64,000 nucleotides of DNA from Escherichia coli (GCF_011045215.1 NZ_CP049201.1); one strand, 5' to 3'; shown: positions 2,187 to 64,000, numbered from the stretch's first letter. A program made the numbers and translations. The notes: a model not told the origin generated them from the letters alone.

Positions 2187-3479
2187 TTAGTGCTGTTCGA
2201 TCAGTTCATCCAGTTTTTTCTGGCTCGCTTGCAGCGTAGTAGAGAGATCGGCTTTACCCACGGTGACGTTATGCACCATTGAACTCACCACGCCAGAACC
2301 CGTCACATCACCCATGCGGGTAAAGTTTTTATCCCCTACTGCGCCAAAGACCTGAATATTTGGCAGTTCACCGATTAGCTGATTCGGTAGTTCACCCAGC
2401 GCCTTAATAACGTCGTTGTCTTTCCAGGTGGCGGTAGTGACAACCGCTTTGTTCACCGGCAGTGCCGCGCCTGGCGACATCATCACCCAGTCGGCAATGT
2501 TGTCCGCCTGCTCCATAAAGGTGACGAATTTTTCTGCTGCTTCCGTTTCTTCGGTCTTTTGTCCGGCGGTAATGGTCAGCGAGGTCAACATGCCGTAGAC
2601 GGCAGAGTTTTTCTCGGTTGGCACCACGAAACCGACGTTTTTCGGGTCGCCTTCTTTAATCACAGCCGGAAGGATATAGGTGGAGTAAATCGCCATCGGC
2701 GCGGTGCCGTTCATAAAGGCGTCTTTCACTTCCATGATGTCGTTAGAACCCGGCATGGTGTTGGCAGCAAGGTCGCGGTAATAGGTCAGCGCCTGCATCA
2801 TCTCTGGTGTATCAAGGGTGATTTTGCCTTCGGCGTTAAAGACGTTGGCCTGGTTGGATAACGCAAACTGGGAGAAGGATTGTTCCGTCAGCACGCTTTC
2901 TGCCGTAGGCAGCGCAATACCGTATTTTTTATTCGCCGGGTCATTCAGTTTCTGTGCAACGTCCAGCAGCTGCTGCCAGTTTTTCGGCTCCTCCAGCCCG
3001 ACTTTTGCCAGCACATCTTTGCGATACCAGATGCCGCCAATCCAGGCGCTGACGGGAACACCGGTCCAGGCACTCCCATCTTCGGTGCGCACAATACGCA
3101 GTACGCCATCGTAAAACGCGCCTTCACCAACGTTGCTGATGACCGTGGCAACCGCCTTGCGATCGATAAGCTGCTCTTTGTCCATAACTTTGGCGTAGTC
3201 ATGGCTGGTTTCGATCACTTCCGGCAGCGAACCGCTACGTGAAAGGGTAATGACTTTAGTGTTATAGGCATCTTCTTCCACGGGCACTTGCTTAACGGTG
3301 ATGCCCGGGTTTTCTTTTTCAAAACGGGCAATCAATTTACTGATAACTGCCTGACGCTCCTGCTCCACCGAAGAATGCATAAATTCGATGGATACATTCG
3401 TTTTATTTTCTTCTTTACAGCCAGAAATCAGGGCGCAGGAAACCAGTGCTGATAACAGCACGATTTTTGATTTAATCAT
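2187..3479 (-). CDS. ycjN: Periplasmic sugar-binding lipoprotein of ABC transporter
   Basis: 430-aa ORF with N-terminal lipoprotein signal (LISGC). Confidence 0.9.
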   Translation of the reverse strand: MIKSKIVLLSALVSCALISGCKEENKTNVSIEFMHSSVEQERQAVISKLIARFEKENPGITVKQVPVEEDAYNTKVITLSRSGSLPEVIETSHDYAKVMDKEQLIDRKAVATVISNVGEGAFYDGVLRIVRTEDGSAWTGVPVSAWIGGIWYRKDVLAKVGLEEPKNWQQLLDVAQKLNDPANKKYGIALPTAESVLTEQSFSQFALSNQANVFNAEGKITLDTPEMMQALTYYRDLAANTMPGSNDIMEVKDAFMNGTAPMAIYSTYILPAVIKEGDPKNVGFVVPTEKNSAVYGMLTSLTITAGQKTEETEAAEKFVTFMEQADNIADWVMMSPGAALPVNKAVVTTATWKDNDVIKALGELPNQLIGELPNIQVFGAVGDKNFTRMGDVTGSGVVSSMVHNVTVGKADLSTTLQASQKKLDELIEQH

Positions 3480-60948: not shown

Positions 60949-60978
60949 TTGACAGTTTTTGTTCTCCGGGGCTATATT
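60949..60978 (+). promoter_or_regulatory. Predicted strong sigma-70 promoter inside the prophage terminus
   Basis: TTGACA (60949-60954), 18-nt spacer, TATATT (60973-60978). Confidence 0.55.
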
Positions 60979-60984
60979 CCTCAC

Positions 60985-61064
60985 ACAACCGCAAAATCGG
61001 TTGTCGGGATTGGCGTCCCGGATGTTTACGGAGCGATATAAGACGCGCCCGCGTCTTTTTTCAT
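60985..61064 (+). ncRNA. Candidate prophage-encoded small RNA (about 80 nt: two stem-loops, single-stranded AU-rich tract, intrinsic terminator)
   Basis: Stem-loops ACAACCG-CAAAAT-CGGTTGT (60985-61004) and CGGGA-TTGGCG-TCCCG (61005-61020); terminator AAGACGC-GCCC-GCGTCTT plus TTTTC (61040-61064); no ORF with an RBS. Confidence 0.4.
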
Positions 61065-61224
61065 ATCGTTTGCACAGTCACATTCGCGATTTATGGCGGG
61101 CTGTGTGGGGGAGCCGAAAGGCTCGCCGGTTTCCGTACCCGGTTACGCCAACCCTGCACAGTTCGCCACCAGTTCGATTGGCGTCGTCGGTGGCGATAAT
61201 TTCCAAATGTACGGAGTTATCGTT

Positions 61225-61788
61225 ATGACCACTCAGATTTCTGTCGAAACTCTTTCCCCGATTACACACAATCAAATTCCCGTTATCACTACCGAGTTGC
61301 TGGCGCAGCTTTATGGCACGGACTCAGATAACATCAAAAAGAATTATTCGCGCAACGCAGATCGCTTTTGTGAAGGTAAGCACTTTTACAAGGTGATTGG
61401 CGATGAACTAAAGAATTTGCGGGTGACTTTAAGTCACTCACAAAATCCCATCTCTCCCAAAACTCGCTCCCTCATCCTCTGGACAGAACGCGGCGCAGCC
61501 CGCCATGCCAAAATGCTCGAAACCGATCAGGCGTGGGAAGTGTTCGAAAAACTGGAAGACTGTTATTTCAGCCATAAACAACCACCAGCAACACAAAACT
61601 CCCCCACCCCAAATGATGGATGCGCATTACTGATCCACTTCGATAAACACGGGCAGGTCGAGTTCACGGAAAAAGTCCCCGCCGATGCGATGGTATGCAC
61701 TCTGGAACGGTTTAAATTTTATCTGGAGCAACATGGGTGGATCGTTGCCCGTAAAGAACAATTGGTAGAAAGGTTGATGCGGTTTTAA
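61225..61788 (+). CDS. Prophage accessory (moron) protein with phage antirepressor-like N-terminal domain (ORF6N/Rha/KilA-N type, unverified)
   Basis: 187-aa ORF MTTQISVETLSPITHNQIPVITTELLAQLYGTDSDNIKKNYSRNADRFCEGKHFYKV; GGAG RBS 8 nt upstream; the ORF-track start at 61093 rejected (no RBS, GC-rich structured region). Confidence 0.6.
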   Translation: MTTQISVETLSPITHNQIPVITTELLAQLYGTDSDNIKKNYSRNADRFCEGKHFYKVIGDELKNLRVTLSHSQNPISPKTRSLILWTERGAARHAKMLETDQAWEVFEKLEDCYFSHKQPPATQNSPTPNDGCALLIHFDKHGQVEFTEKVPADAMVCTLERFKFYLEQHGWIVARKEQLVERLMRF

Positions 61789-61796
61789 TGAATGCA

Positions 61797-61826
61797 AAAC
61801 CCCGGATGATCACCGGGGTTGATTTT
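61797..61826. terminator. Bidirectional terminator between the moron gene and tfa
   Basis: AACCCCGG-ATGATCA-CCGGGGTT followed by GATTTT. Confidence 0.75.
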
Positions 61827-62403
61827 ATCGAGGATGATTGCCGCTAATCGTCATCTCTCTGATTGAGAGTAAATCATCCAAGTTATTCAGCTCTTGCTTC
61901 ATCTCCCGCTGGCGGCGATAAATCTCGTCATTGCGATCGACCTGCGCCTGAACCATTGCAGTAAGCAGCTCATCCAGTTGTTGCATTGACAACTTTACCT
62001 GCTGATTTTCCGCATCGCGCCATACCATGGTTTTCCGTGCCGTGACTGATTTTGCTGATATCACCACCGGGTAAAGACGGGCCATCGAATCCGGTCCCCC
62101 GTTCCAGCTATGACCGTTCCATTCAAAAATGAATGGCTGCGCCTCCTGCTCTGTACGCCATGCTTCAATTTCCCGGCGTTTGGCTGCTTTTGCTGCTTCC
62201 AGCATCTCTGGCGTGACGGTGAACGGCGTTATTTCTCCCCACTTGCCGCTTTGCAGTTCCTGCCAGACTCGCTGCCCTGTCTCTGCTGTATCCGTGGCAG
62301 TTGCCGTATACGGAACCGGTTCATCCATGCCATCAAACAACACCCCGCAGTCAATCGCGCCATTTTCAAGATAACGCGCATTTTCGATGCGTTTTATTTC
62401 CAT
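61825..62403 (-). CDS. Putative tail fibre assembly/chaperone protein
   Basis: 192-aa ORF (ATG at 62403, AGGTG RBS) starting 8 nt after the stf stop; MEIKRIENARYLENGAIDCGVLFDG...; not the lambda Tfa family as far as I can judge. Confidence 0.5.
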   Translation of the reverse strand: MEIKRIENARYLENGAIDCGVLFDGMDEPVPYTATATDTAETGQRVWQELQSGKWGEITPFTVTPEMLEAAKAAKRREIEAWRTEQEAQPFIFEWNGHSWNGGPDSMARLYPVVISAKSVTARKTMVWRDAENQQVKLSMQQLDELLTAMVQAQVDRNDEIYRRQREMKQELNNLDDLLSIREMTISGNHPR

Positions 62404-62410
62404 AAAACAC

Positions 62411-63835
62411 CTACGCAATACGTATGAACAAACCAATCATGACACTGGCTGACCCGGCAGACCCGAGTTCATCGCCTGACAGTGCACGATATGACCCCGG
62501 CATACCACCACCAGAACCCCGCACATATACGGAAACGCTGCCGTTATATCCAACCCCGCTACCGGTCGTGCCGTAACACATAAATTCAACCGCACTCAGG
62601 CGTGACCCCGGATAACTGTAACCGCGCTTTATCCGGCGGTCGGTGTCTGCGTCTCCCTTACCGTTATAAGCCGCCAGTACAAGACTGCCTGCACCGTACC
62701 AGCCGTCCGTGGTACCGGGAGCAATACCGGACAGAAGAGAGATAATGTCCTGTGAGGTAATCTTCAGATTTTCCCAGCCAGTCAGATAACCATTACCTGT
62801 TGTCCAGTAGCGGCTGTAATAAACATCGCCATTGATACCGTAGAAAATAATGGCCTTTGGTGTATATCGCGGTTCCGGTGGATTATTGCGTGCCTCAACC
62901 CACCGGATGCTGACCACCCCGTTAAACAACACACCTCCGGATATGATTTTACTGCCACCCTCAACAAAATATTCACCCGGCGTCGCATTCCTTACCCATG
63001 CCAGAAAATCATCCTCTGTGTTAAAACGGATGCGTTCTGCGGGCAGAAAAATATGCCCAAAACCAAATGCGCCAGGTGTCGCCAGACGGCCTTCAGTCCG
63101 GTCGCGAATGTCGCTCTGTGGCGTCATTGTGGCTGCGCTTTTCAGTCCAAGATTATCACGGGATTCCTGCTGAGCCTCTTCACCTTCATCAGCCAGCTCT
63201 GATAAACGATTCGCCGTTTTCAGTGTCGCAGATAACGCGGTGTCAATATCCTCCCTGACATGCTCTGCATCAGATGCAGCCTGTTTAGCAGCTTCAGCGT
63301 CCTTTTTTACCTCCTCGGCGGCATTCTCAACCTGTGAGACCAGATTTTCGGCCTGTTGTTTACCCTCCGCAACCGCGTCGGCGTTCTGCTGAACACCTTC
63401 CGCCAGTTTTTTTACCTCTTCTTTTTCCCGAGCGGCAGCGTCTGCATGTTGCCCTGCCTGTCGTTCGCTTTCTGTTGCAGTTTCCGCGCTCTGCTGCGCC
63501 TGCGCCACCAGTTCTTCGAACCGCTTAACAACATCCGGCTTCAGGTCGCCTTCATCGAGGGCAGTCAGAAAGTCGTTCAGCGTGCCAGGCTTTGAGTCGT
63601 CGTAAACCGAAATATCACCGACACAGTATTCCCTTTCAATACACGACCGAAGATAAACGTCATATTTTCCGGTCTGAGCTTCAAAAGCATATTCTCCTGC
63701 CGGACCTGTCACCACTGTCGCCACCGTTCTCATGACCACTGCGGATGTATTCTGTCTGGCTTTCAGAATAATATGGTATCCGGACATGGGGAGTCCCGCG
63801 CCATCCGTCAGCACACCCGAAATTAATACAGACAT
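62411..63835 (-). CDS. Side tail fibre protein (lambda Stf-like N-terminus, Ala-rich coiled-coil middle, Gly-rich C-terminal domain)
   Basis: 474-aa ORF MSVLISGVLTDGAGLPMSGYHIILKARQNTSAVVMRTV...VYDDSKPGTLNDFL aligns by eye with lambda Stf MAVKISGVLKDGTGKPVQNCTIQLKARRNSTTVVVNTV...VYEDSQPGTLNDFL. Confidence 0.85.
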   Translation of the reverse strand: MSVLISGVLTDGAGLPMSGYHIILKARQNTSAVVMRTVATVVTGPAGEYAFEAQTGKYDVYLRSCIEREYCVGDISVYDDSKPGTLNDFLTALDEGDLKPDVVKRFEELVAQAQQSAETATESERQAGQHADAAAREKEEVKKLAEGVQQNADAVAEGKQQAENLVSQVENAAEEVKKDAEAAKQAASDAEHVREDIDTALSATLKTANRLSELADEGEEAQQESRDNLGLKSAATMTPQSDIRDRTEGRLATPGAFGFGHIFLPAERIRFNTEDDFLAWVRNATPGEYFVEGGSKIISGGVLFNGVVSIRWVEARNNPPEPRYTPKAIIFYGINGDVYYSRYWTTGNGYLTGWENLKITSQDIISLLSGIAPGTTDGWYGAGSLVLAAYNGKGDADTDRRIKRGYSYPGSRLSAVEFMCYGTTGSGVGYNGSVSVYVRGSGGGMPGSYRALSGDELGSAGSASVMIGLFIRIA

Positions 63836-64000
63836 TTTTATTTCCTGATTCAGAAAACATTAACCAAAATAATTGACGCCTTTTTTCTTGCCACTGGCTT
63901 TCCCCTTTGCAGAAATATCCGTGGCCAGCGACAGATTCAGCGAAAATCCCTGCACCGGTGACAACGAAAATTCCACTGACTCTGCCTGCCAGTTATGGTC

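Follow-up and report, generated by a model that had tools for sequence, protein, structure and literature searches.

Two adjacent genes at the right end of an Escherichia coli prophage raise the question of which host-recognition structure they encode, on what kind of phage particle it would act, and how its distal end came to be joined to its anchor. The window, meaning the whole stretch of 64,000 nucleotides that was analysed (GCF_011045215.1, NZ_CP049201.1), ends with the E. coli-like chromosomal genes trpB, trpA, yciG, yciF, and yciE, followed by an ompW remnant and then by prophage DNA (Table 1). Since this remnant adjoins the prophage DNA, the phage is integrated in ompW and interrupts the gene. 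The two phage genes are best explained as a portable auxiliary tail-fibre cassette, consisting of a fibre and its chaperone, at the right end of the temperate phage in ompW. This explanation is highly probable, and it is directly supported by domain identities, gene order, breakpoints, the co-variation of fibre tip and chaperone, and the agreement of the anchor subtype with the type of tail.

Table 1. Features at the prophage-bearing end of the window (positions counted from the first nucleotide of the 64,000).
Feature	Position	Strand	Basis or remark
ompW 3' fragment, last 41 codons	60642-60764	minus	100% identical to E. coli OmpW
P1-type immunity-I RNA module	60949-61225	plus	upstream of the antirepressor
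Near-consensus sigma-70 promoter	60949-60978	plus	
c4-a1b1 target sites	60972-61024	plus	
isrK-like sRNA	60985-61061	plus	75 bits
C4 antisense RNA	61089-61173	plus	77.6 bits
ORF6N-type antirepressor	61225-61788	plus	PHROG 2379, matched from residue 45 of the long ORF
GC-rich hairpin, 8 pairs (6 GC)	61798-61820		terminator scan
192-aa DUF4376 protein gene, predicted dedicated fibre chaperone	61825-62403	minus	PF14301; PHROG 1141, E 1.8e-84
Tail-fibre gene, 474 aa	62411-63835	minus	ORF; PF08400, E 5e-55; PHROG 2636 'tail fiber protein', E 2e-161
Fibre codons 236-474, receptor-binding end	62414-63130	minus	
Fibre codons 96-235, linker and Ala/Glu/Gln/Lys-rich helical shaft	63131-63550	minus	composition, direct repeat
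Fibre codons 1-95, Stf-type Ig-like collar (anchor) domain	63551-63835	minus	matches to PDB 9e7m and 7kjk
P2 gpD-like late tail gene, 3' end (46 codons and stop)	63860-64000	minus	matches C-terminus of STEC316 'phage late control protein'

The amino-terminal part of the 474-residue protein identifies it as a fibre of the Stf type. Residues 1–123 align with lambda Stf (BLASTP, 52/123 identities, 42%, E 3e-27), and the motifs ISGVL.DG.G.P, LKAR.N, and VY.DS.PGTLNDFL, from which a sequence-only reading had proposed a lambda Stf-like anchor, all lie inside this alignment. That proposal is further confirmed by Pfam family PF08400 ('prophage tail fibre N-terminal'), which covers residues 1–133 with 185.6 bits against a gathering cut-off of 26.6 bits, and by the Ur-lambda Stf N-domain solved by cryo-EM (PDB 9e7m), which matches residues 1–93 (E 2.9e-17). 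The score above the gathering cut-off and the homology to the solved collar domain together place the protein among Stf-type tail fibres. The collar spike gp40 of the Vibrio myophage XM1 (PDB 7kjk) also matches, over residues 1–207 (E 1.4e-7). The sequence AGGAAATAAAA precedes the fibre ATG, and the gene has a good ribosome-binding site.

Behind the anchor, the composition of the protein changes twice, in agreement with the earlier description of an Ala/Glu/Lys/Gln-rich middle and a Gly/Tyr/Ser-rich C-terminal part. Residues 101–235 contain 21.5% Ala, 16% Glu, 10% Gln, and 7% Lys, and residues 236–474 contain 16% Gly, 9% Ser, and 6% Tyr. The shaft-coding region carries a 36-nt direct repeat (63281–63421, minus strand) at a spacing of 105 nt, or 35 codons, which points to an internal duplication of a five-heptad unit. 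The receptor-binding end comprises a well-modelled domain at approximately residues 260–369 and a separately exchanged tip at approximately 371–474. Comparison of the distal fibre with the C-terminal part of lambda Stf gave no similarity (best E 4.2), the similarity to K-12 StfR stops at residue 117, and the distal 240 residues match no Pfam family; the expected lack of lambda similarity thus holds against both Stf and StfR. Homology to T4 gp37 was likewise not found, which leaves the distal part outside the lambda Stf/T4 gp37 class. The lytic phage Av-05 (Vequintavirinae) has homologous receptor-binding ends, with a DUF4376 gene downstream here as well, and the jumbo phage Goslar carries a related segment within its large fibre.

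The mosaicism of this fibre can be seen directly. Binned identities place breakpoints at different positions in different homologues. In P0001, the anchor is 54–74% identical to that of the window, yet each bin from residue 171 onward is 96–100% identical. In P0039, an anchor at 30–46% is followed by 94–100% over residues 136–320 and then by a tip (371–474) at 26–42%. The opposite arrangement is seen in the STEC316 ompW sister prophage, with an anchor at 97% and an unrelated tip (18–38%), and in phiP27, with an anchor at 78% and an end at 18–38%. At the nucleotide level, the receptor-binding region is unmatched in the sister prophage, whereas both flanks are 84–88% identical. Two further proteins, P0012 and P0019, carry the same receptor-binding end on a P2 gpH-type PF12571 anchor, with 88–91% identity over residues 185–474 and 89–100% in the bins from residue 236; their genes are preceded by the Tfa gene of another fibre and followed by a DUF4376 gene. 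From residue 236 onward, the same end is found at 88–100% per bin behind either several Stf-type anchors or the P2 gpH-type anchor. Consistent with independent exchange, anchor and tip identities are uncorrelated across 32 cassettes (Mantel r 0.09, p 0.16). The binned breakpoints, the PF12571-anchored copies, and this correlation bear out the modular exchange of the host-range end that had been suggested from the sequence-only reading.

The junction itself is conserved. Residues 201–235 (...EEAQQESRDNLGLKSAA...) are 77–100% identical in 18/18 Escherichia/Shigella-type homologues, the PF12571-anchored ones included, and 34% identical in phage Av-05. As judged from these alignments, this segment is likely a recombination linker. 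The mosaic is not private to the source genome, as near-identical proteins are already present in E. coli records: P0003, which represents 368 member sequences and bears the annotation 'prophage tail fiber N-terminal domain-containing protein', is 97.5% identical from end to end. An exact-sequence look-up returned no contig for the 474-residue fibre, and P0012 was likewise without a record. The combination of receptor-binding end and DUF4376 gene at a coverage of at least 80% was found in 10/5,426 complete E. coli genomes.

Programmed switching of the fibre end was also considered. An invertase or shufflon mechanism of the Gin/Cin/Pin/Min type was rejected, since neither crossover sites nor a recombinase gene is present and the cassette is flanked by the gpD homologue and an antirepressor gene. 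The search for a DNA-invertase gene or a pair of crossover sites returned only short, imperfect inverted repeats with 79–86% complementarity, in line with the earlier remark that no such sites were seen. Mosaic tail fibres encoded together with their own chaperone are a well-known arrangement and routine prophage biology. What goes beyond the ordinary here is that the 'lambda' anchor stands in the context of a contractile tail and that the chaperone is of the DUF4376 type.

The second gene of the cassette begins with an ATG at 62403, 7 nt after the fibre stop codon and in the same orientation. A 203-residue form of this ORF with a TTG start was rejected as a listing artefact, which leaves the 192-residue protein. 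Residues 70–175 of this protein match PF14301 (DUF4376) with 61.5 bits, the gathering cut-off of the family being 25 bits, and a DUF4376 gene also stands directly downstream of the fibre gene in 31 other extracted cassettes. The AF2 model (pLDDT 95) comprises three N-terminal strands and a helix/beta-hairpin body, with mostly long helices. A lambda-type chaperone of the Caudo_TAP family (lambda Tfa, P2 G, Mu U) was rejected on three grounds: BLASTP found no similarity to lambda Tfa (E 1.1) or to TfaR (E > 1), Pfam gave no PF02413 match at E ≤ 0.01, and hhalign of a profile of 68 DUF4376 proteins against seven Caudo_TAP assembly proteins reached a probability of 14%. The observation that the downstream protein does not resemble lambda Tfa was therefore correct, and the DUF4376 family takes its place.

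Published work on this family points to a function in fibre assembly. The Alteromonas phage V22 protein gp27 is needed for active fibres, and its family is defined by a C-terminal DUF4376 domain (PMC7289586). The H-fibre of Campylobacter CJIE1 depends on a neighbouring DUF4376 protein (PMC7882524). In the models of V22 gp27 and A5 gp9, a trimeric helical body carries beta-hairpins, three further strands are paired with the head of the fibre, and both proteins have been proposed to act as transient caps (PMC10579305). On the basis of family membership and gene position, the 192-residue protein is predicted to be a dedicated intermolecular chaperone of the adjacent fibre. In 32 cassettes, the last 110 residues of the fibre co-vary strongly with the first 40 residues of the helper (r 0.84, p ≤ 0.0005), whereas the remainder of the helper is much less coupled to the fibre tip (r 0.32); by eye, the pairs of tip and helper head fall into three discrete classes. 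This correlation is confounded, because both segments adjoin in the DNA and linkage alone could produce it.

[quoted passage not shown] Several phage records label DUF4376 proteins 'tail fiber protein', and the Alteromonas work proposes that the helper can persist as a cap, both of which would fit such a role. It is nevertheless very improbable: the larger part of the helper, residues 60–192, is conserved across differing tips (mean identity of 70% with differing tips and 81% with the same tips), the predicted long helices are unlike known adhesin tips with their hypervariable loops, and the family members that have been tested act as chaperones. The dedicated chaperone thus remains the preferred role of the helper.

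The tail to which the fibre belongs is not the one that its anchor would suggest. The P2 gpD-like fragment occupies the last 141 bases of the window, with the rest of the prophage beyond the window edge, and ends 24 nt upstream of the fibre ATG, a spacing identical to that in STEC316. The STEC316 prophage (locus L005) has lambda-like head genes followed by a P2-like contractile tail in the order V, W, J, I, H-type fibre, Tfa (G), sheath, tube, tape measure, U, X, and D; after D come the cassette, the antirepressor gene, and the ompW remnant. In such intact relatives, the cassette is therefore a second fibre set. A strict lambda-type module (J-lom-stf-tfa of a siphovirus) was rejected, since the gene upstream is a P2 gpD homologue and the relatives carry sheath, tube, and baseplate genes. 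From this gene content, the tail of the host phage is not of the lambda type, which corrects the expectation raised by the anchor. The DUF4376 and antirepressor genes converge on the GC-rich hairpin, which probably terminates transcription from both sides and closes the late operon.

A survey of 32 IMG/VR contigs with close DUF4376 homologues showed the same pattern on a wider scale, with most carriers of the cassette having contractile tails. Three loci have a P2-like gpD upstream, and their anchors are 96–98% identical to that of the window. Approximately 22 loci have a baseplate of the Rac-SA53, phiP27, or a more distant Mu type together with a fibre and Tfa, and anchors at approximately 78–80% or approximately 40%. 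In four loci, lambda J/Lom lies upstream, the cassette is the primary Stf, and the anchor, of the lambda subtype, is 45–47% identical. In one locus, the fibre carries the P2 gpH-type PF12571 anchor, to which an anchor identity does not apply. As the upstream contexts sort with anchor identity, anchor subtype tracks tail type, which is what would be expected of an attachment domain. Judged by these neighbourhoods, the 'lambda Stf' anchor in E. coli is used mostly by prophages with contractile tails.

One copy departs from this pattern. In E. coli 2013C-3264, an Stx1a lambdoid prophage carries the whole cassette with a nucleotide identity of 93.9% (L002 11996–13991; L045), at the prophage end beside ssrA, behind the phage's own 1023-residue Stf and Tfa. 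In this prophage, the genes for the tape measure, the capsid, and Q are frameshifted, and the portal gene is interrupted by a stop codon. The idea that a single anchor serves siphovirus and myovirus tails through a shared neck was rejected: because the head/neck type of this prophage differs and many of its genes are pseudogenes, the copy is better regarded as a recombinational acquisition than as a universal adaptor.

Copies of this kind also raise the question of whether the cassette is functional at all, as it could be passive cargo or a remnant, acquired by recombination between the variable right ends of co-resident prophages and not assembled on the resident particles. Its presence in a lambdoid prophage with broken genes is in keeping with this, as is the degraded STEC308 sister prophage in ompW, in which fibre and tail genes are truncated. 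Set against these two cases, both ORFs of the window are intact, they have ribosome-binding sites and the same operon spacing as the intact relative, and the anchor subtype fits the P2-like tail class (96–98% in three independent IMG/VR contigs with gpD), as it should in a working attachment domain. Passive cargo is accordingly quite unlikely, and the cassette is better regarded as an auxiliary fibre set of the resident phage.

If the fibre is assembled on a contractile tail, its docking site may differ from that in lambda. In Ur-lambda, the gpV/gpM junction is surrounded by a collar of twelve Stf N-domains, which holds four trimeric fibres (PMC12617516). In XM1, six gp40 trimers bind the rings of the head-completion and tail-terminator proteins at the neck (PMC10457771). 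Because a sheathed tail covers the gpV/gpM site and the homologous gp40 of XM1 binds the neck, the neck is a reasonable candidate for the docking site. The fibre could accordingly be a neck (collar) fibre rather than a side fibre close to the baseplate, a refinement compatible with the auxiliary-cassette explanation: gp40 is the only solved N-terminal homologue besides lambda Stf, and the sheath would block the tube ring to which the domain binds in lambda. The position of the fibre gene at the end of the tail operon and the binding of the same domain close to the tail tip in lambda speak against it, so that a neck location is tentative and rather doubtful. A search of the literature on PF08400 in myoviruses found nothing relevant. 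A broader proposal is that contractile-tailed temperate coliphages generally have Stf-type collar fibres as a second organelle for host recognition, which can be exchanged independently, docks at a site new to P2- and Mu-type tails, such as a neck collar like that of XM1 gp40, and is matured by a prefoldin-like DUF4376 chaperone that caps the tip. In this general form the proposal is unlikely; if true, contractile-tailed temperate coliphages would routinely carry two receptor specificities.

A working model of the auxiliary cassette can be drawn from these elements. The 474-residue protein would form a homotrimeric fibre, in which the collar domain (residues 1–95) may dock on the virion, presumably at a site on the contractile tail, and the helical shaft (residues 100–235) would link the collar to the distal domains. 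The two beta-rich distal domains (260–370 and 371–474) would bind a surface receptor. The DUF4376 protein, which is probably made from the same transcript, would pair its N-terminal beta-strands with the tip of the fibre, and its helical body would oligomerise at the same time. [quoted passage not shown] Host range would shift through recombination at the conserved linkers, by which anchor, shaft, knob, and tip plus chaperone head could be swapped independently of one another.

The region on the other side of the cassette contains a regulatory module of its own. A P1-type immunity-I RNA module precedes the antirepressor gene (Table 1). The 'ash family protein' ORF of the RefSeq annotation in relatives lies across the immunity RNAs and may be spurious, and the same may apply to the first 44 codons of the 231-residue ORF at 61093–61788. 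The antirepressor gene is convergent with the fibre cassette. At this place, STEC316 has a Rha-type regulator, which shares the C-terminal 71 residues of the antirepressor with 94% identity, whereas the N-terminal DNA-binding parts of the two proteins differ, which marks another mosaic junction.

Homologues of the cassette were also observed in other phage records. The Actinobacillus pleuropneumoniae phage vB_Apl-pPE4 (PP818812.1) carries a pair that is 47% and 71.5% identical, unexpectedly close for a phage of Pasteurellaceae. A DUF4376 homologue named 'ORF-191' lies at positions 30–590, upstream of most of the record, in 3/4 short P-Eib phage records (AF151091/AF151674-6), and at 2673–3203 in the fourth.

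Mosaic tail fibres set the range of strains open to a phage or to a particle engineered from one. The two adjacent genes, an exchangeable host-recognition fibre and its folding helper, are a real and ordinary case of the swapping of host-range modules. They offer clean natural junctions at residues 201–260, which are conserved in enterobacterial homologues, with a second breakpoint near 320–370, and the matched pair of tip and chaperone head is a possible guide for the design of chimeric fibres.

Several known systems share parts of this arrangement. Lambda Stf/Tfa and K-12 StfR/TfaR agree with the cassette in the N-terminal collar (42–43% over approximately 120 residues), in the helical shaft behind it, and in having a helper gene downstream. 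Unlike in these systems, the distal part described here is unrelated and lacks a gp37-like OmpC-binding end, and the helper is a DUF4376 protein instead of the Caudo_TAP protein Tfa or TfaR. The fibre gene follows a P2 gpD-like gene instead of lambda J/lom, and no invertase adjoins the cassette, unlike K-12 stfR with pinR. The XM1 protein gp40 (7kjk) has a homologous N-terminal Ig-like domain and an Ala/Gln-rich shaft, and it also belongs to a contractile-tailed phage; it differs in its length of 839 residues and in its distal part, the similarity is weak, and the neck location is that of gp40 only. V22 gp26/gp27 and A5 gp8/gp9 share the Pfam family of the helper, the gene order, and the predicted strands, helical body, and beta-hairpins, whereas their fibres are unrelated and the Pfam domain is the sole link; a tblastn search of the phage collection at E 1e-5 had no Alteromonas phage among the matches listed.

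The closest sequenced phage is phiP27, with 51% identity in L56 and 69% in L57. In this Stx2e phage with a contractile tail, the two-gene cassette likewise forms a second fibre set; it occupies the right genome end, beside att and behind a first fibre/Tfa pair. It differs in its tip (18–38% beyond residue 260) and in its tail, which is of the Mu type and not of the P2 type. P0012 and P0019 have the same receptor-binding end, and their genes, too, lie between a first fibre/Tfa pair and a DUF4376 gene, but the end is joined to PF12571, the P2-type baseplate attachment domain, in place of the Stf-type anchor.
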